Shown: piece by piece, positions 1 through 52,440 of the stretch | Numbering within the stretch: the stretch's first letter is position 1 | How the letters are laid out: every line of letters starts with the position of its first letter | NCBI GenBank assembly: GCA_008632985.1 | Contig: QPGO01000028.1 | Coordinates: 491,598-555,597, forward strand | Reading direction: 5' to 3' | DNA from: Psammoneis japonica | Taxonomy: Eukaryota | DNA length: 64,000 nt | The notes under the pieces: model-generated | Told to the model about the DNA's origin: nothing | Databases searched by the model: none | The model's input: the letters and a program-made list of their open reading frames with translations, nothing else | Translations under genes and position numbers: made by a program

Positions 1-2250
1 CCAATCTTTGAGGCAGCCCACCATGCACAAAACAAGTGTGTGCAGAGCCAGCTTCCCCCAACTCTTCTTGCAAAAAAAAAACAGAGTTGGAATGCCACTT
101 TTTTCACACAAACTCTTTTGTGCTGCAAGAGTGTTGGCACTGGTTTGAACTTTTGAACAGTCAGGTGCAGCGGAAGAACAGAAAAACATCACAGTGCAGA
201 CCATCATTTTCTTGCAAATCACCTCCAAAAAAACATGGGAAAGTCCACCAAGATTTGTTTGCACAAGCTGCAGAGTGACAGAAAAAAGGTGGACACAACA
301 AGCCACACCTTCACACCCACATTTCTCACCTGGCAGGGTGAAAACAACACACCGACTGCCCGGCTGAGCAGGCCAGCTCTCATCACCCTCGTTGAAAGTT
401 GAGTCTTCAGCCTCCTCTTTTCAACGCATCAAATTTTTGGCAGGCTGCTAAAGTGCACATGGATTTTTTGAGCCCCCCAAGTGAAAAACACTGTTGTTTG
501 CACAAGCAGGCTGACAGAGAGATTTTTCATCTGGCTGCAGGGAGCAAGCATGGTGGGCTGGCAGCACGCCACCTCCTCCTCAGTTGGCAGCACGTTGTGT
601 CTTCCTTTTGTGACTTTGTTGGCACATGCAAGACACTGTGGTGCATGTGCCAACAAACCAGACAGCTGCAAACTGCTGGAGATGGCGTCACATTTTTGCA
701 GCAGCTTGGAAGCTCTCTCCAAATGGACATGCATGCAGCGGCGCCAAAAAATGGTCGGTCACATGTCCGTCTGTGTCTGCCTCCTGCCCTGACCCCAAAT
801 GGACCGGAGACAGATGGGTGGGACGAAGTTGGGGTTTGGGGCTGACCACTTTCAGAATGACCAAATTTGCAAGTGGTCTTTGCACATGAAATGGAATGAA
901 ATGACTTTTGCATGGTTCGGGGTTTCACAAAAATTGCCATGTTCACTCATGTGAAACATTCGCAATTTTGCATTGCCTTGGTCATTTTTGGGTTGGGATG
1001 CCATTGACTCCTGGCCAATCAATTGGCTGTTTTTCTGTTTTGAGGTCATTTGCATTGAATGTTTGAGTGCCATTTACTTTTGTCTCTTTTTTGTGCCCTT
1101 GATCTGCTGTGTGGACATGATGTGTCACTTTTTCCGTTGAGATGATGGATTTTTGGATTTTGTGCTTTTTGCGCACGCTCGCTTTCAAACCGGAGATCGT
1201 GAGCACAAACAACTTGCTCAACCGCCTTGTTTCTGTGCCTGACAAGGACAATCACATGATGCAAGCCCAGATTGTTGCTGCATTGTTAAAAATCATTGTC
1301 CAGTGATTGCAGTCTTTGGCTGTGATGCCTTGCATGGTCATGTTTGCAGCTGGAGCCTGACAGCCTTCTTCTTTATGAGCCCTCCTCTTGTGTGCTCCTG
1401 AAGCAACCAAGGAGCTCCCTCAATGCCAATGATGTGTCCTTTGTTTTCCTGCCATCAAGCTTCTTCCCAAGATGAAGCCCCTTTCTTGTTGTCACTCTGG
1501 ACAGAGCCACATGAGCCCAGTTGTTTCTGCATTCAAAGTTGTTGACAACCAGGCTCTCTGAGGCAAAGTGGCCTCCATGTTGAACAAAAAGAAGCCTCTC
1601 TTTGCATTCGAATGACTGGCACTTTAGCAAACAACATTGTTCAGCTTGTGGTTGTGGACAGGGAGAACAAGGTCCAATTCTCTGGGCACCTGAACAAGGA
1701 CATGGGGAACAGACATTGCTGGCAGATCAAAAGGTTCTAGACTTTCAGATGTTGCCATGAGAGTCAGTCACAAAAATGACAAAGATCCAGAGGAGAATGG
1801 CTGGCCTGTCAGGACTTGTCTGATCACAAAAAATGAAAACACCACCAAATCACGTCTTCAGTTTTGTCAATCAAGAATTGGGCGACAACGCACAAAGACA
1901 ACAAGCACAAGACAGAGCATGTTGCCGATGATGTGATGCATTGTGCTGTGTTGTGCACCATCCACCTGCTACACCCAACCATTTGTGGGCTGCCAGCACC
2001 ATCGTCAAGTTGATCATAGAGGCACATGATGAAGATGATGCTGATGAGACATTTTGTGAAACTTGCGCGGATGTCGCAAACTCATGGCTTGCCAGTGATG
2101 CATGTCCCAATGAAGCAGAAGAGCATTGCAGGTGTCCCTCTCCCTGACACTTCAATGAACATGATGCCATGGTGTTGTTTGAAGCATCTAACATTTTTGC
2201 TTGATGTTTGCAAACAAAGAGACAATGAGACACAGCCGTTCAGCAAAGCG
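1..2250. other. CpG- and TpA-depleted hypermutated block A
   Basis: Hand count in 1-600: 1 TA and 7 CG. TG/CA are abundant, and ORFs in all frames are nearly Tyr-free and Cys/His-rich. Right boundary is approximate. Confidence 0.9.
1373..1600 (-). pseudogene. Decayed C-terminal fragment of a Pif1/Helitron-type SF1 helicase
   Basis: Translation SLVVNNFECRNNWAHVALSRVTTRKGLHL resembles helicase motif VI (YVALSRV), with Tyr replaced by His/Cys as TA->CA/TG predicts. Confidence 0.65.
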
Positions 2251-2327
2251 CCCAATCACATGCAGGCGACAACCGTGACGGACGCACATCTTCCACGTGG
2301 CAATGCATGATGATTCAGATGCACTTA

Positions 2328-2335
2328 TACCGGTA
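2328..2335. promoter_or_regulatory. TACCGGTA palindrome upstream of the SDR gene (also at 16141, 22916, 33176, 36757)
   Basis: Recurs ~140-280 bp upstream of four start codons. Function is inferred only. Confidence 0.45.
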
Positions 2336-2540
2336 CACCACAATGTGTGGTGTGTGCCGCCATGATGCTGCGCGCTTACCGTATCACTTTTATCACATGT
2401 CCACATGTCATTCCTCAATAGTTATTGCTGAGTCGGACGTTGATGGCAAACAACATCGATGAACAACAACTGAACTCTGTGTTGCTCTGCATCGTCACAA
2501 GCATCGCTTTATTGTCAACAGAGTCATTCTTGTTGTTGTG

Positions 2541-3293
2541 ATGAACGGGTTATACGTTGTCGCAGGTGCTACGGGAGCAATTGGAAGGAGTTTATGCCAC
2601 AAGATTGTGGAACGTGGCGGCACTCCGTTGTTGGTGGGGCGATCCGCGGACAAGCTAGCAACATTGCAGGGAGAACTTGGAAGAAGCTGTGAATTTGTTT
2701 CTGACGTCGACTTTTCATCCCCCGAAGCCGCAGGCGAGAAGCTCACTGCTGAATTGAAAGGTCAAGAGCTCCAGGGTCTAGCGTACGCGGTTGGATCCAT
2801 CACACTCAAGCCACTTCGAGGAGCAAAGACCGTAGACTTTATTGACAGCTACAAGTTGAATGTGGTTGGTGCAGCAGAAGCCATCAAGGCATCATTGAGA
2901 GGGTTAAAAAAGGGTGGCAGCTCTACGGAGCCTTCTAGCATCGTTCTATTTTCAAGCGTTGCTGCTCAAAATGGACTTGCCAACCATTCGGTGATTGGCG
3001 CGAGCAAAGGTGCGGTGGAAGGTCTAGTGGTTTCGCTGGCGGCAGAACTAGCACCCTCTGTGCGAGTAAACTGTGTGGCTCCTAGTTTAACGGGCGGTGG
3101 TTCGGAAATGGCAAAGGTCATGACGCAAAATGAAAAGATCGCAGAAGCCGTTGCCAAGGCGCATCCTCTGCCTCGGTTGGGTACACCAGAAGACAGTGCC
3201 AACGCAGCCGCATTTCTACTCTCTTCGGACAGTTCTTGGACAACAGGGACAGTTCTACCTGTCGATGGTGGTCGCTCTACAGTGCTAAAGTAG
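2541..3293 (+). CDS. Short-chain dehydrogenase/reductase (SDR, FabG-like)
   Basis: N-terminal VVAGATGAIG Rossmann motif, LFSSVAA, ASKGAVEGL, VRVNCVAP and a TGTVLPVDGG tail. Normal CG/TA content. Confidence 0.9.
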   Translation: MNGLYVVAGATGAIGRSLCHKIVERGGTPLLVGRSADKLATLQGELGRSCEFVSDVDFSSPEAAGEKLTAELKGQELQGLAYAVGSITLKPLRGAKTVDFIDSYKLNVVGAAEAIKASLRGLKKGGSSTEPSSIVLFSSVAAQNGLANHSVIGASKGAVEGLVVSLAAELAPSVRVNCVAPSLTGGGSEMAKVMTQNEKIAEAVAKAHPLPRLGTPEDSANAAAFLLSSDSSWTTGTVLPVDGGRSTVLK

Positions 3294-3699
3294 CAATTCT
3301 GGATATCTGACAAGCGTTGACGATGCTAAGGTAGTAAACTCCCAAAGCGTTTGTCTCGTCAAGGACGCAATTCTCGTTCACAAATCGGCTTGTCTATCCG
3401 ACTCAAATGCGTGAAATTTCCACCGAATGTCGATTCTGTACTTCCCGTTCTGGCTACATTTCTGTTGTTGTTGGTACATGAAAGTGCTATGCTCCATTTT
3501 ACGTCTCCAAGCGAACGTTTATAAACGCATCTGCACCTTTTCCATTCCGTCCAATACGACCTCTCGAGTCATTTCTGGTTCGACACAAGAACGACAACGT
3601 GTGTGGCAAGCAGTCCATCGCCGCCACACATCAAAGAATGTCACGTCAGCTCCTTCAGATCTGTAGAGAGGCCGTCTGATAAAATCATCGTACATCTGC

Positions 3700-6600
3700 A
3701 TTCCAATCAACTGCTGAATCATCTCTTGCGTGTTCCATCATTGAGCCTGAACAAACACTCCTTTTGCAGTGAAATCCAGCCATTGCGCAACAGTCTAACA
3801 CAGGCACATCCAAGAAGGCCTCCTGAATGATGTCTCGCTGACTCTGCTTGTGCATGTCGTTCTTCTCTTCTGTGGTCATGACACGGATTGGGACTGTCGA
3901 AGAGTCATCATCATGTGTGCCCGGAGCATCATTGCCACTCAATAGATTCAGAGTGAAAAAGAGGTGAAAGGCTTCAACAAAGAAACAGAGCTGACTTCCT
4001 CACATGCTGTCTGCAATCAGCTTGATGTGGATTGGGAGATGGAGGCCTCTGTCTGAAAACCATCGAGTTTTGTCAGAGAACGGGCACATCATAAAATGCT
4101 GTGCCAACATTCTTTTCCAACGTCTGCATCAAAGCCATCTCAAGCCATTTTGTAGAAAGGTGGGATGGTTTTTGTTGATGCCCCCAAGGACCAAGTTCTC
4201 CTCAAGGTCCACAGCAACACATTCACAGCTCAAGTCACAAGGCACATCCACAAGACTGGCCTTGTCGATTCTGCACAAAAAGAGCATGTGGGCACACTCA
4301 AAATGTCAGAGTCAGGAAGCAGAAGGAAGAGGATGCAGGTGCGCAACAAATTCATGGGAAACAAAAGAGAGTGAAGGATTGTTGTGCAGGTGACAAGCAG
4401 AGACAATTGAGAAGTGGATGTTGAGATGACTTGCTGCTCCAGAGCCAAGCTGTCAGACCAGCACAACAGAATGTTTTTAAGATCCAAGCAGCACACCAAA
4501 ACAGGTGAGAGAATGGCGGCATTGCCCAGGCACCAATGGCTCCACAGGAAGCAAAAGCATTTGCAAGAATGAGCGTGTTGAGGGCAAGCCATGCAACACA
4601 AAAAAGGCCAGTCTCTGACTCTTGCTTGTTCTCAGCATGTTTGCAGTGTGCCTCTCTAAAGGTCAGACCATTTCACCAAGCTTGCAAAGCCAGCTGAGCT
4701 GAGCAAGTGCTCTCAAAACACCAAAAGACAAGAACATGCAGAAAAAAAGCAAGGCATTTGGGAAGGCAGGCTTCTTTTTTCTTTTCTCAGCTGTCTCAGT
4801 TTCTTCTGCCCTTCCATCCATGGCAACCTTTTGGGAATGTCATGCTGGAAAAATGAAAGCCAGCCTGTTGCTGACAATGTGAGTTCTTGTCACCCTTGCA
4901 CGCAATTGTTAAAATGCACCAACTCTGCATGTTTTGTGTGTCATCGCTGTCAACCTTCATGACAAACACCTCATCAAACCAAAGCATGCTTGTCATGTGA
5001 TTTGTGCAATCACTCATTTCACATGTTGCATTTTTTGCTGTTGTGTCAATGTTTTTATGTTGCACTGGTTTTTCACTTTCTCTCTCCACCCCCTCTGCTT
5101 GGCCAACTCACCCCCACATGCCAACCACTTGGCAGTCGAGTTTTCTCTCTCACATTGTTTCACACTTCTCAGAATTTTGCACAGCTGTTGTCTGCACATT
5201 TTTCAGTGTGTTCCTGCCACACATGCAAATTTCCACAAACTCATGGCAGCATGCCCTGTGGTCAAACATGTCAAGCTGAGAGTGTGCGCTGTTGTGGTTT
5301 GCATGTTCTGTGTGCTGTTCCAACCAGCCAACCATGGCAGTGAATGATTTTGCCCTTCAGTTGACAAGGTCAATCATGAGCCCTCTCATGAGTTTGATGA
5401 CAACTTCCTTGTGTTGTCCTGGCCATTTGCACCCACAAACAACATTGACAGAAAATCTCTGGCTGTCTTGCCTGGTGAGTGGGCCTCTGCATCATGACTC
5501 GGGGTTCAGGCACAAAAAAATCTTGATGAAAGCAAAGGGTGCACATCATGTTCATCACTGTTGAAAGGCAGAGAGGAAGCTCTTGCAGACACTTGTCTGC
5601 ACTCAACAAGACTGGGAAATGGAGGGAGCATTGCCATGATCTCTGCTGCAACCTTGAGGTGGTGGTGCAGAGTTTGTGTGCCAGATCATTGCTGGCAATG
5701 ATGACCTCAATGACCTGGCAGCTGACAAGCCTTGTGTCTCCACTTTTTGAAATGTGCCAGTCTCTTTGCCTTGATTGATGGCTGAGCACACTGCCTTTGT
5801 GGCACTTCATTGCCAAAGCTGTTGTTGTGTGTCAGATCTGCCAAAAGCAGAAAGACACAAGCCATTGGCTTTGCAGCAATTTTGCAAGGCTGCCACATGG
5901 GTGGAGCAGTGCACACTTGCCAACAGCTTTCTTGTCACATTTGTGGTGTTGAGTGATGCAGGTCAGAGGCCAGTGCTGTGAAGGCTTTGACTGCCAACCA
6001 CCCTCATGGCACTGCAGTTGTGAGGTGACAAAGGAATGCAATGCCAAATCCCAGCAAGAGGCTTGCAAAACAAATGCAAGCTCAATGCTGCAGCAAGCAC
6101 TTTGCAGGGGTTGTCCCGAAGATCAGTCCTGTGCCCATTCATGGTGCAGCAAGGAGCTTGCAAAACACTTTGCTGCAAAATGTGCAGCCAAAGGGCTGGC
6201 TGCTTGGAAAACAAACAAAAACAAGGGTGCAGGTTGAAGATGAGATAGAGCACCGGAAGGAAGGATGCTGACAAGGGCCCGCCAGCATGAGATGGCAGCA
6301 AGCTTCCTTTGTTTTCATCAACACTCTCACATTGCACTCTCACTTGTGTTTTGTGACTCCTCCTGTTCAACAAGTGCTTCTTCACATGTCCCTGGCAAAA
6401 TGGCCAAGACAGTGGCAAGCTCCAATCTGTGGCCTCCAGCAATGGCAGCAGGCAATGTTGCAATGACAAGGGAGGTGCACACTCACCCTTGCCTCCACAA
6501 TGTGGCCACTGTGTTGCAGTTGAGCAGCCAGGTTCAAACTTCTGTGTCCTTTGAAGTCTGTCAGGAGGGCCCAGACATCTGCTCCCGAGGGGCTGAATCT

Positions 6601-9600
6601 TGAGCCCCCCTCTCCCCCACTCAGAACCCCAATCACTTGTCATGGCTGTGCACGCCAGTGCCCCCTCAACACTTTGATCCATTCAAAAGTTGCCCAGCCA
6701 CCACTGAAGAAGTTGCTGCTCATTCATCACAACTGTGCACTGTTGCCAACATGACCAATGTGAGGCACATTCTGCACCACTCTGCCGCTGGCTTTTGATG
6801 CCTGGTGGTGAACAATTTGGAGCAATGGTGGAACAAGTTTGCCAACAGAGCCCCAGCAAACAATCTCTCAAAGGCACCTCAAGTCCAAGTGGAGCACCCT
6901 CATGCTCCAGATCATTGCTTGGATGCAGCACCAGCCATCTGACAAGAAAGTGCAGTCAGCAAGACTGGCTTGTTGGGCTGTCTCCATGTTTCTGTGCCAG
7001 TGCTGTGTCTTTTCATGCTGTTGAGGGAAGAGCCCCTGATCTCCAAAGCACAACAGAGCAGAACACTCTTGTGTTGTCTGGGTCCAAAAGCAAAATTGAG
7101 TTTGAGCACACAGCAGGGCAGAAGTGTGCAAAACCCTTGGCTGTAGATGTGGTCCAGCGGCAAGCTCTGCTCAGCTTTGCAAAGAAAGTGAGGCAACAGC
7201 AGGCTCCACTCAGCTTTGCAAAAATGAGGTGGAGCTGAAGAAGCTGCACAATGCACTGCTGCCCCTCAAACATGAGGATGTCACAGCACATGGCTTGCAC
7301 ATCTCTTGCAAGCAATGCCTTGTGGGCCAGAACAATGACAACAACTCTGGCTGCATCAGGAGCATTGCTGTGGTTGAGAGCTGAAGTGTGGTTGACAAAA
7401 AGATTGTGCTCAAGTGCTCTTTCAGTGCAAACACTCTTGACATTGTGATTTTTGCACTTGTTGACAGTGCGGTTGTTGTGAGTTTCTTTGTGTTGTTGCA
7501 ACCAACCAAATTGGCAAAGTGAGAACAACAGCAAATGAAACATGGTTTGTTTCCATGTGCACACATGCCCAAATTGACTAAACCAGTTGTTGTCCCATTG
7601 TCTCTTGCAGCCCATCTCACATCTTGGTGTTCTTGGCACTGTGCTGGCATGACACCATGCTCCAATCTTTTGTGTTTCAAAGAAAATCTGTTTCTGTGAC
7701 AGCTTTTCATTGTGAGATGTGACAGCAGTCCCTGGCAGAAAACAGCAAAGAAGCTGTCAGTTTGGCATGTCATTTTTGGCAAGCATGGTGCAACACTGCT
7801 GTTTCTGCTCACCTGTGTGTGCCACACTGCCATGCTTTGCTTCTGGCCCTTGGCTGTTCTTGTCAACTTGTCTGAGTTTCAAGATTAAAAAATGGCAAAA
7901 GTGTCAGTTTGTTGTTTGCAGCAAGCTGCCTTTGCCCACAACATGCTTCTGACCTCTTGCCTTTCCAATGGCTTTTTTGTTGGTGCAAGCAGAGTCTTTT
8001 GCCTTTGCACAATGTCATCATTGCTTCTGTGCCACTTGGATGCACCCATCACATGTTTTGTGTTGTTTTGTGTGGCAGCAATGTGCCATTTCTGCCATGC
8101 AGCTGAGCCAGTTGGTCTGGTTGTTGTCACCTGCATCATTTTGCAAGCAGCTTTTTTTCCCTTTCATCACATTCATTCTTTTTGAACTCTTAAATTGTTT
8201 GGGTTGACTTGTGAAAGTCATTTTGTTTGTCTTGCTTTGTTGACACAGCACTTTGTTTGTGAGCTGCTGCTCATTTGCCAGTGATGTGGTGTGCACCGAA
8301 AATTGTCTCAATGTCTCAGTTTGTGTGATGTTTGTGAGCTCTTGTCGAAAATGAGAATTTTCACATTTTTGCTGGTCTGTGCACCAGTTTGTTTGCATCG
8401 GTGGGGCTGCTGCCACAGCTGACCTTTGCAGCTGCTGCACACACACAAGCTTGCAGGCAGCAGGAGGCTGGAAAAGGTGGTCATGCTGAAACCAGACAAG
8501 CAAAAGGTCTGCTGGGTCAGTGTGGCTGCAGTGCTGGATGTGTGGATGAAGGGACTTCATGATGACTGGTGTGAACCAACCTGCTGGCAGTCTTGGGGCC
8601 ACCCCTCTGCAGCACTTTAAGGGCTGTGGCTGAGCACTGCAAGCTCAGCACTTTGGTGTTGTGGCCCCATGTCACCTTGTTCCTGACATTGTGGCTCTGC
8701 ACCACCTTGTCTCCAACTGTGGCAGACTGTGATTTTTCAAATTCCGAAGCATGATGGTCCCATCATCATGGTGGCACACCAAACAACCCGGCAGCAACAA
8801 GCTTTGAGGGCAGTGGCAACATCAGACAGACCCCGTGCAAGACTTTGCAAGAGCACCATGGTTGAGCGCTGCAAGGTCAATGTTGTGGCATTGTGGCCCC
8901 ATGTCACTTTGCAAGCTGCAGACAAAAAAATCATCAACCCCCACCCGCAAGAAGAATCATGCCATGATTGGCATCAAAATGCTGTGTGCCCCAGCAGCAG
9001 AAACACCACAGCACAGGGATTCATGTGGCACCCAAACCATGGTGGCAGTGCTTGTGATGAAATGTGGGGCAACATTGTGATGTAAAGAAAAACAGCCAGC
9101 ATGGGCAAGAAGCAGCCTTGGTGTGGCTTGCCAACAAGCAGAAATGTTGCAGTCATTCTCTTGTTTGACAAAATGACTTTCGAGACAAAGTTTGACACAG
9201 CACCACTGCACAGACAAGAGGAGGGGGGACCATGACTCTGAAAATTTTGCCACCCCATTTCTGGTTTGCTGTTTGTATGCAAGCCACAGGGTGCGATCTT
9301 TGCACAGCAGAGGCAAGCCAGTGCTGCTCTCCATTGAGGAGGAAAATGATCCCCCTTGCACCAAAAAAGAAGCCCGTGCACCACTTGACCACAGCTGAGC
9401 AGCTGCCATTGCAAACAGCAGTGTCAACTTGGTTGTTGATGTCTGAAAGATCCAAAGAGGAAGGAGGGGTGGGCAATGATGGATTGATGTGAGACATGAA
9501 AAATGCCCCCACACTTTAACAGCCAATTCTGGGACTGTGGCATGGGCTCTGAGCAAATCAAGGCATTTCTGTGTCCATCAGAACAGCATCTGATGGACGG

Positions 9601-12600
9601 ACTTTACTCTGTGTTGTTCTGCAAAAGTTTTTGTCATGGACAATCACCAGTTCCTGCCACAAAGTCAAATTCCTTTGCTGTGATGCACCATGAACCATGA
9701 CAGTTTGGATGCATGCTTTTGACATGGTGTGCATGCATCGTGGTGCTGTGCAGGGTCCAAAAAATCTGCCGCAGTGAATTTGTTAAATTTGCAATCAACC
9801 CAGATTGCGGAAGCAGCTCGGACCAGAGGTTGCACCCAGAAATGTGCTCCCATTCCTGATGTTTCTTCTCATCAAGTGAATCTGTTAGTCTGGTCCCTCT
9901 GTGGCTGGCTTGGATGACTTGTGCAATGCATCTGACAAACACAAAATGGTTGTGCAGAGGAATCACTGCGAATCAGGCAAAGGTTTCAGAGAGACATCAT
10001 TTCAGGTTAGTGGGCATGGTTGTGCAGTTGCAGCAAAGCCAACAATGGACCAATTGCAGCACTGTGCATCCCAGATGACAGCACAATCTCATCATCTCTC
10101 AGATGCTCAATGTCATCAAACTCCTCATCAGTGATGATGACAAACAAATGGGGTGTGCTGACACTGCATTTGTCGTGCTCCTCTTTCACTGCTGCAAAGC
10201 TGAGACTGGGAACCTTTCTTCTCTCTTGCACACAGCCCTTGGCAAATCACCCCTGCCTTTCCCAAATGAAAACCGCACACCCACCCCCCTTTCCAACTGT
10301 GATCATGTCAGCAAATGTTGCTCCCCTGCAATTGAGGAGGAAGCAACCTTTCTTGGATGGGATTGGGAGCCAATTTCAAGCTTGAATCAATCAAAGTTCA
10401 TCTCTGCAGCTTCAAGTCCACCTCTTGTGTTTTGAAACTCTGTCAATGGGAATGACAACCTCAGCATGACAAGCTCATTGTTCTCTCTGAGAACAATGCA
10501 CTTTACAGCAATGACACTCAGAGTGTTTTGCTCATTTTTGTCACAGCTGAGCATAAAATCAAACTTCTGCAACAGCACAGGAAGGCCCTGCACATTGCCA
10601 GCCTCAGCAAGAACAAGGAGCAAAACCAACGGAAACACAACTGCATTGTCTTGCACAAAGACAACTCCCTTGGTTTTAAGATTGCCAATTCTTCCACCAC
10701 CAACTGAGTCTTCACTGCCAATTGGCCATTGAAAGAAAGAGTGTGACACAAGAATTTTGCATGGTGCACTTTGGACCAACTCTGCAAACTGCCGTCCATG
10801 CTGTAAATTCACAAGAGCTCTGACACGCTCCAACAGGGCATGAGGTTGAATCATGTCTGCATTGAAAGCATCACCACGTGCACTTTCAATGTCAAGTTGC
10901 TTTCCAACAACTCGATGTAGCAAGAAATCCACCAAGCACCAGTGCAACAAACTCCAGATCCTTCTTGCACTTTTGTGAGACCCCGTCTGCTCTGTTTGAG
11001 TTGGCCTGGTGCAATGGATCAAAAAGCACCTCATGCACATGAGATGATTTCAGCAACAGCAGCGGCATCTCTTCTGGGGCCACTCTGCCAGAAGAGGCCT
11101 TTAAAAGATCATGCACAGGCCTAAAATTGGTCCCACTCAAAGTGCAGAACACAAAACCCTGGTGCTGTCAGTCAAATTCCTGCACAGCCACCAACACTTG
11201 CCTCAAAAGTGACGTCCTCCATCAAGCTGCATCACCACAATGGTTTCATCAAAGTTGACAACAACCATGGCTTTGGGATCCTCTCTGGTGATCTCACAGA
11301 GGACACAGCAGAGTTGGTTGCTTCCATTCCCACCTGGGAAATGGACTTTTCCATCTGTTGTGAGTGCCGTGAGCTGATGCGCAAGACTCATAGAAGGAGC
11401 TTGACACTCGTCTTCCATTGCAAGTTTGGAATGCAAGATCCGGCATTGTTGACCTGCACTGACACACACTTTGACCACCCAACAAAAGTCGTCCATGTGA
11501 GACATGTTTTCCCACAGCTTGTTGTTCTCATCAACATCTGCTGCTCTTGCAAACACCTTGCAACAGAATGTTGCAATGTTGTCTTTCCCAGGCCAGGCCC
11601 ACCAGAACAGGCTGCAAACTGCAGCCAGTGGTCATTGGCTCCTTTGTTGTGAAGACACTTGCAAAATTGGACAGTGGCATGCTTCAACAGTTTGTTGATG
11701 CTTTTCTCATGATTGACCAATTTCAAATGCTTGCCAAGGACATTGCCTGTGCATTGTTGCTGTGCCTCACTGTTGCCATTTCTGCCAAGTTTGTGGACTT
11801 CTTGGCCTCCAAGCTTTCCTGGTGAGATTCAGATGATTGGAAATGCATGTGCAATTGAACATCATTAGAGTGCAAGCATGAGAGCACAACTCAAATCGAT
11901 GTTTGACCAGCCCCACACACCAAGGACAGCACAAGAGCAACATTCAACCCACCATCTTGCTGCTGTTGTTTGGCAAGCTTGTTGCTCAAAGTCTGAGCAG
12001 TTGCATCAGAAAGACCATTTACATGCAAGACATCAGCACTGATTCTGTAGAGTGAGCCCGGATTGTGTCAAAACCCTGCTTGAACAAAATGCCGGCATGA
12101 GGCCCGCAACCCTGCCCATGCTTCCACCTGCAATCACAACCCCCATTTTGTCACCAAAATGCATTTCCAGCCAACTGATGTCACACCAATGCAAAGTTCC
12201 TGACAAGTTTTGGGGTCGCAAGCAGAGGCAGGTTGCGTTGGACAGAGCTGTCACTGAAAATCATCCCTCGTGCTTTCACATGCCATGAGGTGCTCCGCAA
12301 AAAGTTGGCTCCATTTTCAAATGCCCGACACCATGAACAGTGCATGCCCAATCCATTCTCACAAGACATTGGTCATGTGACTCACTTTCTCAACACCAAG
12401 ATTGGGTGGCCTTGTGATGACTGCAGTTGACCTCTTTAATGCCACAAATGGGCATGGCAACCCCAAAAAAAAAATCATTGCAAGCAACCCACTTTTTGTT
12501 TTCAGATTTTATGTTTGCACCTTTGAGATCAATCTGGAGCAGACAAAAGCAAGATGGAAGCTCAATTTGTTAATTCTTTTTGTGGGACAGCAGCAACAAT

Positions 12601-15600
12601 GTGATTTTGTCAACTTTGTTTGGTTGCTTTTTTTTTTTAAATCACACACACCAAGAATTTTGCAAACAAACTTTGCCCCACATTTTTGCTCCAATCCAAC
12701 TCTCTCCAAATTGACAATGTGAAAGTGGAGCCATTGCAATCACTTCATTGTGTTCTCAAAAGATCCCTTGGATCCAAGTCGTTGCTCTGCACAGCAAAAC
12801 TTGGGACCAGCATCCTTTGCTTTCTTGAAGACTGCCACCACAGCAACTCCCTCTCCACCTCACTCTCAGTCAACACACAAAACCAACCTCCTGCATCCAC
12901 AAATTGATTGTGTTCATTGATTGATCTTTGCATTGCCACCAGCTTTGGCTCAGCAGGTGCCAAAATTCTGGCAAGCGGGTGGTGGACAAAGAGCCGGCAC
13001 ATGACATGGCATCATGAACAACTGAATTGGCGCCTTTGTCAACAACTCACCACAAAGTCAAAGGCACAGAGGAGAACACATTCAGACAGTCCACCTGTCA
13101 AACAGGTGCCAAAAGACAGTGTGTCAAATGCACTCTTGTGAAAACAAAGGGAGCTTGGATGACTTTTGCAGCATCACAACAATTGCCATCATTGGCATGA
13201 GATTTGATCAAATTCCTTGCAACAGCATGGCAGCAATGGTCTGTGCACTCATCAGGAGTGTGCCTGCCATGCCAGCTTGGATTTGCTTGACCCTTCAACC
13301 AGCCACTGGACTTGAGCAAATCTCTGTGGGTGTAGATTTGCTTGCTTGCATCACAAGTTTGTTGACTGGGGTGTTTTCAGATGTGGACAACAAACAATTT
13401 GCACAATTTTGTTTTGGAGCACTCATTTGCCAACAGCTCTGGGGGGCATTGTTGCAATTTTGAAAGTTTGGTGTCAACTTTTGACATTGGTTTTTTTGCA
13501 TGCTTCATCTGTGAACAGAGAAGAGCCAAATCTCAACCTTTGACAATGAAATTTGTCACAAGTTGCTGTCACACAACAGAGCACCAAATGGTTGGGACCC
13601 ATTGCTGTGTTGTTGTGCCTTCAGCACAGATCAGGGAGGAGATTGTGGTCTGTGCCTCTCCCCTGCACAAGTGGGGGTTCACTCATGATTCTGCCAATGC
13701 GTTGGATTCTCCGTGTTGCATCAGCACACAAAGCTGCAAGCAAGCCTTCAGAACAAGCCAGGCAGCAAGATTGTTCTTTCTTTCATCAATGACATGCTGC
13801 AAAAGAACGTCAATGAGTTGAGAGCAAGCTTTCCTTGCAGCTCATTGCTGCCCACCCTTCATGGCTCTCTGCCCACCAAGCTTTGCACTTGGGTTCCCCA
13901 AAAGCATGAGCTCCAGCTTGCTTGAGGTCTGGTTTCTTGTGGCTTGTGCTGCAGCCAGCCAGAGAGTGCTGCCAACTGGGAGTGCTTCATCCACCAGAGA
14001 AAAGAAGGCTGGAGAGCAACTCGTCCACAAAAATTGTCGCCAACACTCACAGAAAGGGGCCACAGGCACACCCCTGCTGTTGCACAGACCCCTCCAGTTT
14101 GTGTGTTTTTGCCAGCAAAATGTGCCTTCAACCTTTGTCCATCAAGCCAGCAGGCATGAAAAACATTTCATGTCTGAGAAAGAGCCAGTGTTGGGGCTGG
14201 CAAACAACATCACCCTGCAATGTGACTGGTGCAAAATCTGCGCAAGTGCACAGATGTGCTCTGGAGCTGACAAAAAACAAAAGCAGGGACATGGGGGGGC
14301 AAGCAAAGGTGACAAAAACAAAACAAAACAAAACAAAAAGCAAGCCAATGACAACAAGAAGAGATTGGAAGCTCAGGCTCAGTGGCTTGACTGTGTGTGC
14401 AAGAAGATTGACATTTTTGCTGTGGAGCTTCCCACTTTGAATGACCAGTGTAAAAATGCTCTCAAATTGAGGGTGTTCCATTGGTTGCAACTGAGCACAC
14501 TGTGGTGCACACACAGAACATGTGTCAAAAATCACCTCTGCCAGTCTCCAGCACATGAGCTTGAAAGTCAACCACCCTTGTTGGCTTGCCCAAGCAACAT
14601 GCATCTGCACAAATTCACAGAGCCACTGACTGTTGTCCATTGGCCGCTTCATTGTTGTTGGCACACGGTGATGAAAACAGACTGTTTGAATTCAAAAACA
14701 AGAAAATTGAACAGGAGCAGATCTTCTGAACCTGGCAATTGATCTGCCAGCCCCATTTTTCCAAACAGTGCATTGCATGTTGCTGAAAACCCCCTGCCAA
14801 CAGAAGATTGGGCCAGCCAGAGCACTTTATTTCAAGAGCACACATTGCAACACTTGGTGCTTTCCAAAAGAATGCACACCGCGCCATTGTTTGATGATCA
14901 CTGCCACATGGACACAGCCATCTTGGTTGATCCATCCTCTCAGATCATGGGTGCAACACAATCAGAGCCATGGTGCATTGGACACAAAGACACCACACAA
15001 ACAATTCAAACTCCTCCAGTCTTTGTCCACCTCACTCATCATCAGTGCTGACCTGTGCAAGAGAGCTCCAAGAGGAGCTCCAAGAGAAGGAATTGCAGCT
15101 GATGAGTGGTGGAGAAGTGCCACCTTTCCAAGCTTCTCAACACCAGTGTGGGTGTTCAGTCTCAGGCTCGAAAGCCAGCTGTGAAAAGAGCAAGCTTTTT
15201 CAGGAGCTGCCAATGAGCTGGGGAGAAAAAAGCACCTCAGTTTGCATTGTTGCTGGTGGCAACAGCAGAATCACAAATTCTTGCTCTGCCAAACAGCCGC
15301 GCCATTCAGGAAGGTTGTTGAGTGCAAAAGATGCAAACAAGAACCCTTTTGCAAAAAGGAGGGGGTTGTGGCACAAAAGCTGCTCAAAATCCACCCACCA
15401 TGGAAAGAACATGAGGGCCAACCAAAACGCAGCTGTGCGCCATTTCGCTGCAAGCAATGCAAGAAAGAATGTCAAAAAATGCCAGGTCATTGTCAGCCCC
15501 CAACTGAGGAAGGTGTGAAAGACCTTTTTCATGCTTGTGCTTGTGCCTCAAAAAACAACAAGCCGTCTGCAACACAGCCATCATGTGTCCCATGCCATGC

Positions 15601-16020
15601 TGCTGTGGCTGCTGCTGCCATCAGCACTGTCTCACATCAAATGGCGCCACATGTGCACTCTGCCACTGACATTGAAGATGATGTCCTTTCTTGAGAGGCG
15701 CCAAAGAGAGAGAGATTGTTTGCACAAAAAAGTTGGCTCCTGCTGCAAGAGGGAAAAAATTCATGCTCTGTTCTGACTTGGCCTTTGGCTTCACATCTTC
15801 TGGACTCATGTCCACCCAGGTTTCATGCTGCCTTGAATGAGAGATCAGGGGTGGCAACATCTCCTGGCCAAACATCGTTTGTTGCCGTGGCCACGCGGCA
15901 ACACAACAACGGAGCTTTGATGTGCGCATCAGAGGGGGGGGCTGAAATCATTGTCAGGAAAATCAGTGGAAGCAGCCAAGCTCACAGCTGCTGGAGAGCA
16001 TGAGGTGGGAGGTGCGGTGA
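3700..16020. other. CpG- and TpA-depleted hypermutated block B (~12 kb of decayed genes/TEs)
   Basis: Hand count in 5401-6000: 0 TA and 1 CG. No coherent long ORF. Boundaries are graded and approximate. Confidence 0.9.
10007..11726 (-). pseudogene. Decayed Crinkler-like P-loop NTPase gene with putative C-terminal restriction-endonuclease-like domain
   Basis: Colinear frameshifted fragments: Walker A CSGGPGLGKTT, Walker B VVVNFDET, then TLSGT, then a terminal EEHDK...HLFVIITD...IGPLLA segment. The Crinkler-family call rests on my recall of that architecture. Confidence 0.6.
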
Positions 16021-16117
16021 TTATTGTACAGCAGACAGTTGAGAACGAGCCTGGTCACCTACCAACGCACAGAAATGTCGCGGTCATTTTCTTCTTGTTC
16101 ATAAAAATGACTTGAAA

Positions 16118-16267
16118 GACAAAGTCTGGCACAATGTAGTTACCGGTACGTAGAATAGACACAATGAAAAACGCAACCGAGCAGCAACGGGGCGGGCGAG
16201 ACAAAGTCTGGCACAACGCAGTTACGTAGAATAGACACAATGAAAAACGCAACCGACCAGCAACGGG
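16118..16267 (+). repeat. Two-copy tandem duplication (82-bp period) upstream of the sulfatase-like gene
   Basis: gacaaagtctggcacaa...tacgtagaatagacacaatgaaaaacgcaaccga occurs at 16118 and 16200. Confidence 0.9.
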
Positions 16268-16278
16268 CACCATAACCA

Positions 16279-25870: not shown

Positions 25871-25899
25871 TGTGACTGGAGTTTTTAAGCCGCCGCCCT

Positions 25900-44935: not shown

Positions 44936-46339
44936 TCAAAAGACGCGAGCCACCTCACGAACAACCCCACTACAGTTCATACATGCCACCTCTCCAATGG
45001 TCTTGTCCTTGTAGAGGAGGCGTGCACATTCCATGCAAGTAATGAGTTTGTAGCAACAAGTTGACAACACGATGGCCTTGTTGTCCCGGCAAACGTAGCA
45101 GATATTATCATCGTTTTCGTCCGCAGTCTCATCCTCACCACGAAGTTTCAACTCAATAGTGGGATTAGGATGGGCCGCCGCCGCGGCTGCGGAAGGAGCA
45201 ACAATCACAGGTGGAGGCTGTACAGCTTGGAGTGGTTGATGATCATCACGGCGCTGCTGCTGGGCCTGCTGCTGCTGGGCCTGTTGCTGGATCAAAAGGC
45301 CCTGCTGCTGGGCTTGTTGACGAACGTCACGGTGTTGCTGTTGGATCACACGGCGATGTTGCTGGATATCACGCCGGTACTGTTGCATCTGTTGTTGGAA
45401 CTGTTGCGCATTCTGAGCCATGTGCAATTGCATGTTTCCCACACGCTCCATAAACTGTTGTTCCCGAAGGATGCGCTGATTGCGCTGTTGTTCTCTTCGT
45501 GGCGGTCGTGCCTGCTGATCGGTAGGCATGCCATTGATCGTGTTGCCCGTGCCATTGACAGTGCAATCCTCGCCTGATACTGCATTGTTGTTACCGGTGG
45601 CACTAGCGCGATATCCATCTACTGTGTTATGATCGCCTCGGGCCTTGGCCTGTCGTCCACTCACTGTATTTTCATGCCCTATCGCTTCTGAATACTCTCC
45701 GCTTACATTGTTTCGATTGCCTCGGACTTCGGCATGTCGTCCACTCAACGTATTGTTATGTCCGTCGACTTTGTTATTATCACCAATAATGACGTTGTAG
45801 TTGCCATCTACTCTGCTCTCATGTCCCCGAACTTGATTGTTGTCTCCAAGAACAAGAACTTTCGTGTCTCCTTCGACCGTATTGTTGTTTCCAGTCACAT
45901 TTGAGTGCGTCTCACAGCCAGCATTATTGAGACGGAGTGTGTTTCCGTTGCCCCCGACATTGGCGTAACTATGTATACAGGTGATTTCGTTGTTGTTACC
46001 TGTAACTGTCGTTAGTTCGTAACGGCCGTTTTGCGTTCGGTGATCCTCATGACGATCGCGTATGATGTTGTGGTTCCCATAAACCACAACATTAGACCCA
46101 TCAATGGTGTTGTCGTCATCATAACTACAGGTGATATCGTTGTTGTTGCCTGTGACGGTCATTCGAATAGGACGGCCGTTTTGCGTTCTCTGACCACTAC
46201 GACGCTCGCGTATGATATTGCGGTTCCCATATACCACCATATTAGACCCAGTAATGGTGTTGTTATTGCCGTAGATTGTGAGATTCGAACCATCAAGAAC
46301 AGCATCGCTACGATTTATTGTGGACCGAGGTTCCGCCAT
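44936..46339 (-). CDS. NxVxG-repeat beta-solenoid protein with Gln-rich linker and C-terminal RING-like finger
   Basis: Starts MAEPRST. About 250 aa of heptad-like G-x-x-N-x-V repeats, a polyQ region, then CYVC...TCC...CMEC...CMNC. Confidence 0.8.
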   Translation of the reverse strand: MAEPRSTINRSDAVLDGSNLTIYGNNNTITGSNMVVYGNRNIIRERRSGQRTQNGRPIRMTVTGNNNDITCSYDDDNTIDGSNVVVYGNHNIIRDRHEDHRTQNGRYELTTVTGNNNEITCIHSYANVGGNGNTLRLNNAGCETHSNVTGNNNTVEGDTKVLVLGDNNQVRGHESRVDGNYNVIIGDNNKVDGHNNTLSGRHAEVRGNRNNVSGEYSEAIGHENTVSGRQAKARGDHNTVDGYRASATGNNNAVSGEDCTVNGTGNTINGMPTDQQARPPRREQQRNQRILREQQFMERVGNMQLHMAQNAQQFQQQMQQYRRDIQQHRRVIQQQHRDVRQQAQQQGLLIQQQAQQQQAQQQRRDDHQPLQAVQPPPVIVAPSAAAAAAHPNPTIELKLRGEDETADENDDNICYVCRDNKAIVLSTCCYKLITCMECARLLYKDKTIGEVACMNCSGVVREVARVF

Positions 46340-46779
46340 TTTCTTCGTTACACGGGAACGCGTTTTCTGCTGCTGCTGTTGTTGTTGTTGTTGTTGTTGT
46401 CCGCAACGTGGAAGTGCTGCGTGTCGTCCAAAGGCGAACAATAGTATGATATAAAGTGTATCAACAGTGTTCACAAAATGGAACAGATAGGCCTTGCCAG
46501 AGACGTCGTCTGAGAACGAGACCCTTGGTTTCGATGGAAATGAAAATGAAAACAACGTTTTCAGTGTTGCTGCTTGCTCAAGTTTTGAACCACGATCGAT
46601 CCACGTGATTCCGCACGCACGCAGATCGTGGCGGCCGCCAGCCCGGCGCGCGCCCGCCGTTGGTTGCGGTTGTTTCGTCGTTACTGGTATTGGTCCCGTG
46701 CGTGCGGTGGCGACCGCGCGAGCGCACGCACGCACCGAAGCTTGAGATTATTTGTCGGTCTGTAGGGCTACGTGGCTGT

Positions 46780-49400
46780 GAGAGAACGCTTGCAACATGG
46801 TGGCCACACTGAGACTTGAATTGTTGGTCAAGTGCCCAAACTGGTAAATTGTGAAAATCAATGGAGTTTGTCACAGTGGGTTCTTCCACGCCCAGTTTCC
46901 AGCAGCTCTCTCTCTCTCTCTCTCTCTCTGCAGCCCTCTGAGGAGCGGCCAGCAGTGTGCAGCAGCAGATGTCTGCATCAGGGGCAATCTGCTCTTTTCT
47001 GGAACACCAAAAACATGGCCAATCAATGTGCAGCAGCGTGCTGTGAATTTTTTCCCCTCATTGTCTCAAAGCTTGACAGAGATCATTTCAATGCATTGTT
47101 GGGAGAACCTCCTTGTGGGGCAGTGACGTTTTCAAGCCTCGAGGGTGCCGAAAATGAGCAAAAGCTGGAAATTCGACAAAGACACACCGCCACATCTTAG
47201 ATCTTGGCCTGATTGCTGCACTTTGGTTTCTCAGCCACATGGTGGCTGGGTGCTGGTGGTGGGGAGGGGCCTGGCATTGCTCAGGGGGGGTCAAGAACGA
47301 GGCACCAGTGACGACTCCTTCTGCCGCACCAGAGTGCAGGCTGAGTTCGTCGCCCCCAACCCCAAACAAAAAACAGCGTTTTTGAAAACAGCCAAAAAGT
47401 CAGCATGGACTTTTTTGCACTTGCTGCATGTTGAGAAGTTTTTAACTTTTGTGATGCATGGAAAATGGTGCCTTCACCATCTTTGTTGATGAGACATTTC
47501 ACACATGATTTTGTTGGCACCCTTCAGACTGTTGTGCTGTGACATCACTTTTGTTGTTGGTGCCCATGCAGGATTGGCGTGAGTTTGCAAAATGGCCAAA
47601 CTTCTGCTGTTGCCAACTGTCACTCTGTCAACACCCAGATTTGGCCTGTTCCAGCTCCAGGTGATCCACTTTTCATCACGTTAAAGTCCTTCATTTTTGA
47701 TCATTTCGAAAATCGAAAGGTGAGTGCACACCCGAGAATGCATGTAAAGTGAGCACATGGAGCACCTGGAGCTGGAACAGGCCATTTGCTGCCGATTGAA
47801 TTTTGCCATTGATGTCAAGCACACCATGTGGCAGCAGTGCACTGCAGCTGAAAAAGTGGTGGGAGATTGGCAGTGGCAGAAACAAGTGGCCTGGAGGTTG
47901 CCCACTCCTCTTGCCATGTGCAACAGCAAAACTCTTGTTGAGCTGTGCAACATTGCAGCAACCTTGAGCAGCCAGCATGTGGTTGCCATGGGCTGTGTTT
48001 TCATTGCTCTTGACATTGGCGCACAACTGCAGCAGGTGATTTCATTGTTTTGTTGCCTGTGACAATCAGTCACATGCCAAGGTTGTTTTGCATTTGGTGA
48101 CCACCATGATGCTTGCACATGGTGTTGTGATTCTCATGAACCACAGTGTTGCCTGGAGACCCACTGACAGCATTGTTGTTGTCACAGATTTCAAGACCCC
48201 AGTTGTCAAGAATGCAGCACACACAGTGGATGGAGGTTCCACCATTTTCTTCATGAAATGCTGGTGCTTCTTCTGTGCCACTGCTGCTGTTGTTGTCTGC
48301 AACATGAAAAAGTGCTGCATGTTGTTCAAAGGCAAATGGCTGCAAAGTGTCAACAAACACTTTCAAATTTGGCAATGGCTTGACTTTTTTAGCTGCTCAT
48401 GAAAACAAAATGAGGATGTGCTGCTTGGCTGGGGCAATGCTTGAGAACACCTGTTAAAAGCAAGGTGCTCATCCAGAACTTTGTTCATGTGCTGTGAGAA
48501 AATGGCTTTGACAAATGTGAAAGCTTTGCAGCTCAGCAATGTCGTCTGGTTGTTGAGTTTTGTCAAATTCCCGTTTTTGTTCCATGCACCCCCCACTTAA
48601 ATCAATGTCATTGTTTTTTTTTTTCAGCAAGAAAGTGATGTGCTGCATGAAGAACAGTGCCAGTGCAATGCTCAAAAACAACACTGCTGCTTGTTGATGG
48701 AGCGCAAGGTGTGCTTTTCTTCTTGTGCAGAAACTTGCTTGTGTGCTGCAAGCAGACGGCCCTGGCAAACACATCATGCTTTGCAGCCCAGCACAATGTC
48801 TGGTTGTGAGCTTTGTTGACCCTTGTTTTGTGCATTTTCCACATCAAATCTGTGCCACCACTTTCTGCCTTGATGGCATGGTGCTCCTTGAGAGTGCTTG
48901 TTGACAACAAGGGGTGGCTGCTGCTCATCCAGAACTTTGCTTGTGTGGTGTGCTGTGAGCAGATGGCTTTGACAAACACATGCTTTGTGGCTCAGAAACA
49001 TCTGGTTGTCATTTATGATGCAGTGCTGAGTTGCATGGGAGAAGGGCAGCAAAGATCTTCTGCACAGGAGGACACATTTTTTTTGATTTTCTGCGTGTCA
49101 TCTTCTGTGCAAAATGGCATGTCTCGCAGGGGCAAACTGCTTTCAAATAAGATTTGAAGATGTGGCAACAACAAAGGAGTCATCTCATTGTGTTAAAGCT
49201 TGACAGAGTGAAGTGATGTTGGGAAAACTTGTTGTGGGCCTCCTCTTTCACAGCCTCGTCTGGATGGAGGGTCCCGAAATGAGCTCTGGTGGCTGGCGGC
49301 TGAAGCGTGCGCGAAGACGGCGGAAATGCAAAAAAAGGAAAATGAAGAAAAAACAACCTCTGTGGACAACTATGGAATCCAAAAAAAGACGCTGAACCGA
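46780..49400. other. CpG- and TpA-depleted hypermutated block F
   Basis: Near absence of TA/CG. Contains a decayed paralog of the neighbouring gene and a diverged direct repeat (ctcatccagaactttg...tgtgctgtgag at ~48468 and ~48924). Confidence 0.88.
47950..48360 (-). pseudogene. Hypermutated paralog of the 5' part and upstream region of the NxVxG/RING gene
   Basis: 48098-48136 aligns without gaps to 46191-46229. gaggttccAccattttcttcAt vs gaggttccGccattttcttcGt spans the ATG. Upstream sequence also aligns. Confidence 0.85.
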
Positions 49401-49591
49401 AATCTCTCACACGAAACAAGGCGCATTGCGTCTTTCAATCTCGGCAATCTATTCTCTACCTACTGTACCGGCATTGCTTGCTTCGCTGACGTCGGAAGCT
49501 GCATCAAACCGCTGAGCCACAGCCAACGCAGCCTCATCTTATACCCTTATCTACTTCAGTAGCAGACGACTCGTCTCCGGTGGACGACGGC

Positions 49592-51097: not shown

Positions 51098-51339
51098 TAT
51101 AGTTGCATCTGTGGCAAGTGTTAAAGCTATGAGCGGTTGGTGAGAACAAGGTACCATGCTTGTCTTTTAGGTTTCCCAAGTAATCTTATTTCAAAACATG
51201 TTTTATTTTTATTTTCTTACTTGTCGCGAAAGCTTTGTCTCTATATGGAAGACAACTTCGTCTGATTGAATTGCTGCAATCGAGCTGTTTGTAACCCCAA
51301 GGCATTGCACTGGAAGAGATCATCATTTATCGCACTTGG

Positions 51340-51520
51340 CCTCAAGCGTCGCCAACAGCACAGTGAGTTGAACGCATCCATCAATGCCCCAGCAGGTGGT
51401 GGAGCATCAGACAACAAACAAGAGGACTCTGTCAAGAAGAAGGTGACTTCTGAAGCTGCAGGAGCATCTGCCTCTGGGGCCATGACATTTGCAGATCTCA
51501 GGTTGTTGCTTGGAAAGCAC
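51340..51520 (+). pseudogene. Hypermutated copy of the 3' end of the SNF2-family gene
   Basis: Aligns to 57608-57788 (LKRRQQ...AMTFADLRLLLGK vs LKRRQQ...AMTFADLKLLLGK*). Confidence 0.9.
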
Positions 51521-52440
51521 TTCCATCTGCTTGCTTTTGCACACCATGATGAGGCAAACAGTCAATCAGTGTGAGCACTGGTGGCAGGAAACAATCTCAT
51601 TTTCATTGTGGCAGAAGAACAATCAGCAAAGTGGCCAGCATGCAAAGTGTCCAGGGAGCGTTCAGAATTGCTGGTTGCTGGAAGAGGACAGGCCAGTTGA
51701 CCCAAAATGCCTCCAATTGGATGATGCCTCTCAAAGTGCTGCTGTTGAGAAGTGTGACCCATGCTCAATTTTTTTGGTTTTGCCAGGTTGCCAGCTTCCG
51801 AGAGAAAAGGGTTTGTTGCTTCTTTGTTTCCCTCCACAGTGCAAAAATTGAAAATCACAATGACCAAGTTTTTGTTGAAGTGGTCAAAAGGGAACTCAGG
51901 GGCAAAAGGAGAGTGTGGGGTGTGTCAGAGGGCAGTTGGGATGGTGGTGAAGAAGGGTGGGCCAGCGGCATGGACAGGCGGCAGGAGGAGAATGTGCGAT
52001 GCAGCAGCAGCAGGGTGGCAGCAGACCGGAAAGGTTGGGGCAAGTGGGCAGGTGGTTGAAGAGGTCAGGGCCAATGTTGAGGCCAAGGAGTTGCTTGAGC
52101 AGCCCAGGATTGAGGAAAAAAGAGAAATGGCAGGATCCGAAGGGGTCAGGAGAGAGTTGCTTCCAAGAGGCATCAGCATGAGCGCAAGGAGGCCATTCTT
52201 GGATGGAGAAAGAAGGGAGGGTTGGTGTGCGGAGAGCAGGAGGCTTCTTGGGAGAGTCAGCGAAATTTGAGGGAGCAGGCCAAGGAGGCTTGGGAGGAGG
52301 GCGAGGAAGAGAGACAGAAGCGTTGTCAGAGTGGCCAAAGAAGAAAACATGAAAAATGGCAACCAAGCCTCCAAGAGGCAAAATGCCAGGCAGCAGCAAG
52401 GTTGATGGTCCAACTCGTGAAGATTTGCGCGGGAAAAATC
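51360..52440. other. CpG- and TpA-depleted hypermutated block G
   Basis: No TA seen between ~51335 and 52440, and few CG. Confidence 0.88.

Follow-up and report, generated by a model that had tools for sequence, protein, structure and literature searches.

The 64,000-nt stretch of Psammoneis japonica DNA analysed here (the window; contig QPGO01000028.1, positions 491,598-555,597 of the forward strand, assembly GCA_008632985.1) contains five blocks in which the dinucleotides TA and CG have almost vanished and TG and CA are strongly enriched. By three ancestral-state tests this composition is the product of mutation and not native to the DNA, and the changes are restricted to the blocks, absent from the silent sites of live genes and independent of a homologous partner. 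A mutational, domain-restricted pattern was what an earlier reading of the bare sequence (the original prediction) had proposed, and the ancestral-state tests and live-gene silent sites uphold it. The explanation to which we give slightly better than even odds (about 0.55) is decay of 5-methylcytosine (5mC) at CpG combined with a TpA-specific A:T>G:C process like that of the chlorarachniophyte Bigelowiella natans, both limited to silent chromatin.

Under a strict cut (at most 5 TA plus CG per 200 bp) six segments are recovered, 1-656, 1281-1903, 4023-15825, 34243-35039, 47783-49175 and 51393-52221, which merge into five blocks totalling 16,101 bp; wider edges, set by eye from individual TA and CG positions, give the approximate extents of blocks A to E in Table 1, with a sum of about 18.6 kb. 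The blocks take up 25% (strict) to 29% (with edges) of the window, so the third that had been estimated is slightly too high, while the counts given for positions 1-600 (1 TA, 7 CG) and 5401-6000 (0 TA, 1 CG) are exact. Within the blocks 49 TA remain where 580 would be expected at outside frequencies (observed/expected ratio, o/e, 0.04, compared with 0.53 in the remaining window), as do 119 CG where 891 would be expected (o/e 0.13, compared with 0.96). TG (1818, o/e 1.85) and CA (1888, o/e 1.84) exceed their outside ratios of 1.25 and 1.23, and G+C content is 47.7% in the blocks and 47.9% outside. The blocks do not consist of tandem arrays or low-complexity sequence, as only one of six rows from Tandem Repeats Finder, a 29-bp array, falls in a block.

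The direction and context of change can be read from two decayed paralogs, in blocks D and E, that have a normal-composition counterpart in the window (Table 1). The homology of block DNA is hidden unless sequences are compared in purine/pyrimidine space, where the block D paralog and its template are 82% identical. A self-comparison of the window in this coding regained both pairs and added 8955-9235 with 15889-16167 (z = 11), which has about 100 convincing columns and was left out of the pool; five other pairs (four at z 2.5-4.0, one at 0.4) had been chosen post hoc and were dropped. We pooled the two paralog alignments (51265-51821 with 57538-58069, and 48001-48387 with 46101-46495), taking the normal copy as the ancestor proxy. 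None of its 38 TA sites is kept in the blocks (17 are now CA, 12 TG and 9 other) and 4 of 50 CG sites are (19 now TG, 17 CA), so that jointly 65 of the 88 sites read TG or CA. When rates are resolved by neighbour, with both strands folded, A>G affects 29/76 sites at TpA (0.38) compared with 14/125 at ApA (0.11), 14/121 at CpA (0.12) and 9/109 at GpA (0.08), i.e. 29/76 against 37/355 at all other NpA (Fisher test, p 3e-8). C>T is likewise concentrated at CpG, with 40/102 (0.39) compared with 12/117, 13/76 and 8/100 elsewhere (0.08-0.17; p 4e-9), and transversions run at about 0.08-0.15 per site in every context. The loss of every TA and the A>G rate of 0.38 at TpA mean that CpG decay alone is insufficient and that a second activity is needed; on both points, the inadequacy of CpG loss and an additional A>G process at TpA, the original prediction is supported. 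It would have been refuted had TA>TG/CA changes been no commoner than other A:T>G:C transitions, and the excess at TpA shows that they are commoner.

The fate of TG in the normal copy is also informative. Here transitions persist almost only as the double change TG>CA (9/71), about sevenfold more than the roughly 1.3 expected by chance from the single-site rates. This excess fits CG and TA as short-lived intermediates that are resolved again to TG or CA. When every TA and CG of the window's normal DNA was converted in simulation to TG or CA at 50:50, the block profile was matched with r = 0.97 over the 16 dinucleotides, the simulated TG and CA o/e being 1.97-1.99. If the blocks are at equilibrium, the counts bound TA loss at no less than about 38 times, and CG loss at no less than about 16 times, the back-mutation rate.

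An independent view across species is provided by a decayed gene in block B. The open reading frame (ORF) at 10387-11049 (minus strand) has 27 homologs in a representative library (best E 3e-41, 51% identity), and tblastn with these traces a nucleoside triphosphatase (NTPase) gene from 11840 to 9989 through frames -3/-2/-1/-2/-1, with stops at 10389 and 10249. The pseudogene is identical in 187 of 247 conserved columns (at least 6 homologs, at least 60% agreement), in which His (8/8), Cys (5/5), Asp (5/5) and Pro (9/10) are kept. Conserved Arg is kept at 3 of 11 positions (otherwise Gln 5, His 1, Cys 1, Ser 1) and conserved Tyr at none of 6 (His 2, Cys 2, Phe 2), in keeping with the claim that Tyr codons had been erased. 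These replacements are the ones expected if TAY had become CAY or TGY and CGN had become CAN or TGY. The homologs themselves, about 540-810 aa long with a Walker A motif, a conserved C-terminal region and sub-threshold matches to Pfam ATPase_2, AAA_22 and NB-ARC, appear to be an undescribed STAND-like group.

Depleted sequence of this sort might conceivably have arisen artefactually, when chemically modified DNA was sequenced, base-called or assembled, or through RNA hyper-editing followed by retro-copying. We compared the window with Logan contigs of one run, a k-mer assembly separate from the window assembly with a single-copy depth of about 66; the reads, the only sets found, trace to a single sample of a single study that may itself have supplied the assembly, and their platform is not recorded, which leaves some room for an artefact. 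Nevertheless the contigs reproduce the blocks, which argues against an assembly or consensus error. Their depth over the blocks equals that over flanking genes (about 63-78x). Block B is supported by records 3-6; record 3 spans 2198-8085 with 2 letters different from the window and record 4 spans 8058-12333 with 3, together 5 differences in about 10.2 kb. The indels, frameshifts and roughly 10% transversions that separate the blocks from their paralogs likewise mark the divergence as real. Block E does hold the 3' end of a gene together with its downstream region, which might be expected of a retrocopy. Against hyper-editing, however, TG and CA are interspersed and the 12-kb block has no strand-coherent TG or CA tracts (runs test z = -1.5, compared with -3.3 in normal DNA), the events in the paralogs are mixed in order, and depletion continues unbroken through unrelated sequences and has graded edges. 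We regard an origin by artefact or editing as scarcely credible.

Depth also reveals how the block DNA is repeated. Two parts are multi-copy (Table 1) and 7338-9338 lies at about 140-170, while 4.0-7.3 kb and 9.3-12.0 kb are single-copy (depth about 66-78) and fully depleted. Contigs at least 90% alike to the window differ from it at 55 transition and 10 transversion places. In the most abundant repeat CG is about half retained (1 TA and 15 CG are left in 601-1200); either TA loss outpaces CG loss in this repeat (601-1334), or the family spread from a TA-free master copy. Copies of 668-2200 and 12280-14504 show many unpolarised C>T and G>A differences outside CpG (GCT>GTT, CCT>CTT, AGC>AAC), a hint of another process acting on cytosine or of nothing more than age. 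Separately, one read contig links 2243 to 5198 with 19 other letters between, a junction that would delete the normal island between blocks A and B; its shorter side has only 21 letters, and a repeat copy elsewhere may be its source.

Live genes of the window escape depletion. At codon 3|1 boundaries of its 14 intact genes, silent sites have a CG o/e of 0.91 and a TA o/e of 0.61, so the flanking genes are normal, as had been described. The intact short-chain dehydrogenase (SDR) gene sits in a 1.7-kb normal island with blocks on both sides, a transcription unit that the depletion process spares. Homology, on the other hand, does not set the targets. The partner copies of the depleted paralogs (45.9-46.5 kb and 57.5-58.1 kb) are unmutated, and an inverted repeat at 23125-23887/24502-25265 (764 bp, 96% identity) retains 39 TA and 41 CG in each arm, a duplication without depletion; together with the depletion of single-copy DNA this indicates that the changes are not homology-triggered. 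The same inverted repeat holds internal sub-repeats of about 180 bp and may be a transposon end.

These data bear directly on a mechanism resembling repeat-induced point mutation (RIP), i.e. homology-triggered mutation of duplicates, perhaps through a DNMT4 related to fungal RID. Fungal RIP turns CpA into TpA, so that it creates TA and raises AT, mutates both copies of a duplication and depends on a RID-type DNMT at a premeiotic stage. The blocks share with it that DNA which is non-functional or duplicated is irreversibly mutated by transitions within bounded regions and loses its coding capacity; at least two of them duplicate other window sequences, and parts are multi-copy. A candidate enzyme is also at hand, as the DNMT4 carried by many diatoms groups with fungal RID, its function not being known (PMC9998398, in the part available). 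The blocks nonetheless lose TA instead of gaining it, hold their GC content, leave partner copies and the near-identical inverted repeat intact and include fully depleted single-copy DNA. The original prediction had called the pattern the opposite of RIP, and we judge a RIP-like origin very improbable.

The closest known case comes from B. natans, where the integrated DNA of giant viruses and virophages undergoes TpA>TpG/CpA hypermutation (Mettrop et al., bioRxiv 2026, 10.64898/2026.01.13.699255) at about 1000-fold over background; because of this case, the statement that no such process had been described no longer holds. As given in the accessible text of that preprint, 231 of 302 nuclear mutations in mutation-accumulation lines fell in two integrated viral regions, and 230 of these 231 were A>G or T>C, all 230 on TpA; the rate was about 6e-7 per site and generation. 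Its authors propose an ADAT2-like DNA adenine deaminase, and that text has no mention of diatoms and 0 occurrences of CpG. In both organisms TpA becomes TpG or CpA by strand (29 of the 38 TA in our pooled pairs are now CA or TG), the affected domains are of kilobase scale with the rest of the genome or window normal, and the host is an alga of the SAR lineage (stramenopiles, alveolates and Rhizaria); the depleted genes of B. natans are, moreover, enriched for unannotated or degraded ones. Unlike B. natans as portrayed there, the diatom blocks lose CpG in the same domains and are more completely depleted, with a TA o/e of 0.04 compared with a Rho TpA of 0.45 in the B. natans nucleocytoplasmic large DNA virus region and a cut-off of Rho TpA <=0.43 for its depleted clusters. 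What can be recognised among the diatom targets is pseudogenised host genes and repeats, none of 186 ORFs carrying a viral domain, and the process is known from its end-state sequence and not from a measured rate.

On the explanation we favour, the blocks would be transcriptionally dead DNA, pseudogenised host-gene duplicates and unclassified repeats, that has undergone two context-specific transitions over a long time within sharply bounded domains, CpG to TpG/CpA and TpA to TpG/CpA, until TG and CA would be the sole remaining pyrimidine-purine steps. The CpG arm would be deamination of 5mC in silent chromatin that is methylated at CG, as DNMT5-type methylation in diatoms would lead one to expect; in Phaeodactylum tricornutum CG methylation of silent elements needs DNMT5a (PMC9998398, in the part available). 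As in the CpG decay of vertebrates and plants, CpG goes to TpG/CpA on both strands, and in silent domains only, although the blocks also lose TpA, more strongly and over slightly wider stretches than CpG. The TpA arm would be an enzymatic A:T>G:C change at TpA of the B. natans kind, most simply through a TadA/ADAT-like enzyme that deaminates adenine in DNA to inosine, probably recruited by the same silent-chromatin state with a slightly wider footprint. The net effect would be irreversible inactivation, with Tyr and CGN-Arg codons lost, new TGA stops and constant GC content.

Could the same end-state arise passively, through a long stay in repair-poor heterochromatin in which ordinary lesions go uncorrected, without any dedicated machinery? 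The duplicates are old, given transversions of about 10% per site in all contexts, so modest rate differences could have saturated, and between copies of the multi-copy parts there are many C>T changes at sites other than CpG as well. Yet transitions at TpA and CpG come close to saturation and show no rise elsewhere (A>G 0.08-0.12, C>T 0.08-0.17), and a TA o/e of 0.04 calls for the bound on TA loss given above. We know of no spontaneous TpA-specific lesion giving A:T>G:C. The B. natans process, as far as the available preprint text describes it, is episodic, about 1000-fold over background and enzymatic-looking. A passive by-product is in our view improbable.

A question closer to the favoured explanation is whether CpG and TpA are lost through one system or two. 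Block edges are graded over a few hundred bases, and at several of them (15801, 47001-47400, 49201 and 52183-52440) TA is absent for 150-600 bp past the end of the CG-poor zone, the reverse being never seen. Together with the half-kept CG of 601-1200, these wider TA-free edges speak weakly for two processes that occupy one domain and can be separated. An intergenic stretch at 27001-27600 has 4 TA (o/e 0.11) and normal CG (28, o/e 0.71), which may be a TA-only early stage or mere local composition.

The alternative is that a single enzyme system makes both arms. It might be a dual-specificity polynucleotide deaminase acting on C and A in DNA; the B. natans preprint, in the text available, cites amphioxus BjADAT2, which edits A and C in DNA, and C-deamination by trypanosome TbADAT2. 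It might otherwise be a 5-methylpyrimidine dioxygenase of the TET/JBP type whose substrates are 5mC at CpG and T at TpA, the palindromic pair of methylpyrimidine-purine steps, and whose oxidised products would mispair, giving C>T and T>C; 5-hydroxymethyluracil (5hmU) and 5-formyluracil mispair with G. A dinoflagellate TET/JBP homolog makes repeat-enriched 5hmU that silences transposons, and older work had T replaced preferentially in TA and TC (PMC11572971, in the part available). This system resembles ours in being a base-level thymine mark with a TA (and TC) preference, repeat enrichment and a SAR-lineage host, while differing in that it is an epigenetic mark and not a sequence change, the available part of the paper reporting no mutational footprint. 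Both outcomes are strand-symmetric (CG: 19 TG/17 CA; TA: 12 TG/17 CA), and TA and CG depletion coincide almost everywhere, with no 200-bp bin that is CG-poor yet TA-normal. The wider TA-free zones, the lower o/e of TA than of CG and the 1 TA against 15 CG of 601-1200 tell against a single system, for which there is also less need, as 5mC deamination alone suffices for the CpG arm. We hold one enzyme system for both arms to be rather unlikely.

Several points weigh against decay of 5mC combined with a separate TpA process in silent chromatin. The near-complete coincidence of the two depletions is one. The sole indication of silent-chromatin targeting is that block edges track genes, and the normal paralogs are merely proxies for the ancestor. 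The simulated match is partial, with AT at an o/e of 0.75 where 0.95 was simulated and GC at 1.34 where 1.12 was. With duplicates this old (transversions of about 10%), slow and episodic processes are indistinguishable. In its accessible text the B. natans preprint describes viral targets without mention of CpG, whereas no domain of viral or transposon type turned up in the 186 block ORFs; and mutation accumulation in P. tricornutum (156 mutations), as far as that source was available, gives CG, CC and TG as mutagenic contexts, and not TA.

Two further systems share with the blocks A>G changes with a preference for 5' T (or U). The polymerase-eta WA>WG phase of somatic hypermutation (phase 2), put forward in the original prediction, is contradicted by ApA, which stays at background (0.11, compared with 0.38 at TpA). 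ADARs are metazoan and act on RNA, and ADAR hyper-editing leaves the strand-coherent tracts that the blocks lack. Our searches of open-access and bioRxiv text turned up no description of TpA and CpG being erased together in diatoms.

Table 1. Depleted blocks of the window, with the genes, paralogs and repeats discussed in the text
Feature	Position	Strand	Details
Block A	1..2236		Open at window start; 6 TA in 1-1800
Multi-copy repeat in block A	668..2001		TA gone, CG partly lost; depth 1795 (668-1334) and 576 (1335-2001) vs ~66
Normal-composition island	~2237..3950	+	TA and CG at usual density to ~3943; holds intact SDR gene
SDR gene, intact	2538..3293	+	adh_short_C2 E 4e-35, profile positions 1-234 of 236
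Block B	3950..15875		Largest domain, ~12 kb; CG back at 15876, TA at 16022
Decayed gene in block B, uncharacterised STAND-like P-loop NTPase family	9989..11840	-	Walker A GGPGLGKTT; at least 4 frameshifts; in-frame TGA stops
Multi-copy part of block B	12007..15341		~2-5 genomic copies; depth 139-356 vs ~66
Block C	34230..35079		2 TA between 34229 and 35079
Template of block D paralog	45915..46495		Normal composition; inside LbR_Ice_bind gene 44936-46735 (-)
Block D	46790..49256		Left edge: TA loss begins ~600 bp ahead of CG loss
Decayed paralog in block D of adjacent ice-binding-like repeat gene	47870..48387	+	Aligns to 45965-46495; 259/412 columns identical
Decayed paralog in block E of SNF2/RING helicase 3' end and ~280 nt past stop	51265..51822	+	366/595 columns identical to template
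Block E	51330..52440		Zero TA over 1,112 bp (TA at 51328, next 52441)
Template of block E paralog	57538..58070	+	Normal composition; end of gene 54969-57788 and downstream region

The identified content of the blocks consists of two host-gene fragments, the one STAND-like NTPase pseudogene and unclassified multi-copy DNA, and identification covers roughly half of the blocks. None of 186 block ORFs (49 at E<=0.05 and 137 at E<=0.01) has a Pfam domain of transposon or viral type, and no terminal repeats or long terminal repeats were found in 1-16200, so the claim that the process inactivates transposable elements is not borne out in the window, where the content is host pseudogenes and unclassified repeats. 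A 306-aa frame at 13822-14742 has no Pfam domain, and 0 of 506 candidates scored as a homolog. All Pfam hits of the block ORFs are sub-threshold, and those to Cys-rich PHD or zinc-finger-like domains were set aside as most likely an artefact of TGY enrichment. Blocks without TAA and TAG stops will indeed yield long spurious ORFs rich in Cys, Trp, His and Gln in annotation.

The intact ORFs of the window are long, mostly unbroken and encode proteins of eukaryotic type, their products being a sulfatase, ankyrin repeats, a plastid-type TypA/BipA, an LCAT, an ice-binding-like beta-roll, a zf-MYND protein, the SNF2/RING helicase, a MATH-BTB protein, ribosomal P0 and the SDR. The best matches of TypA/BipA are diatom proteins at 71-74% identity. 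In six metagenome loci matching the BipA-like protein (49-58% identity, 58 kb altogether), taken as a sample of relatives' DNA but too small and distant to speak for other diatoms, no depleted window was seen. The SNF2/RING gene was considered as a DNMT5 and ruled out, the ORF upstream of it being without a methylase domain. The LbR_Ice_bind gene at 44936-46735 (minus strand) is built of repeats of about 127-150 bp, with a tandem array at 45976-46263, and lies 1.5 kb from its block D paralog. Amid these diatom nuclear genes the ORF at 31349-32083 (minus strand) encodes a domain of the bacterial low temperature requirement A type (LtrA, E 4e-11).

To our knowledge, fungal RIP is the only thoroughly studied example in which unwanted DNA is mutated in a context-specific, domain-targeted way. 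The first measurement of a TpA-specific A:T>G:C process dates from 2026 and concerns a single chlorarachniophyte (10.64898/2026.01.13.699255, accessible text). In the window we would be seeing, in a diatom, what such a process leaves once saturated, joined to CpG decay and acting on host pseudogenes and repeats rather than on viruses. Diatoms are a separate SAR lineage with good genetic tools and a known CG-methylation machinery, and this makes testable whether there is one system or two, which chromatin mark recruits it, and which enzyme turns A:T into G:C in the double-stranded DNA of the nucleus; a naturally occurring editor of DNA adenine would be of biotechnology interest too. More speculatively, and with less than even probability by a wide measure, diatoms and perhaps SAR lineages generally might possess one defence pathway, RIP-like but chemically distinct, in which an enzyme system recruited by silent chromatin and not by homology, be it a dual C/A DNA deaminase or a 5-methylpyrimidine dioxygenase with 5mC and T as substrates, erases the two self-complementary pyrimidine-purine steps, methylated CpG and TpA, the TpA hypermutation of B. 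natans and the dinoflagellate 5hmU at TpA of repeats being other faces of the same ancestral system. If so, silenced duplicates, transposons and viral inserts would be permanently disabled without a shift in GC content.

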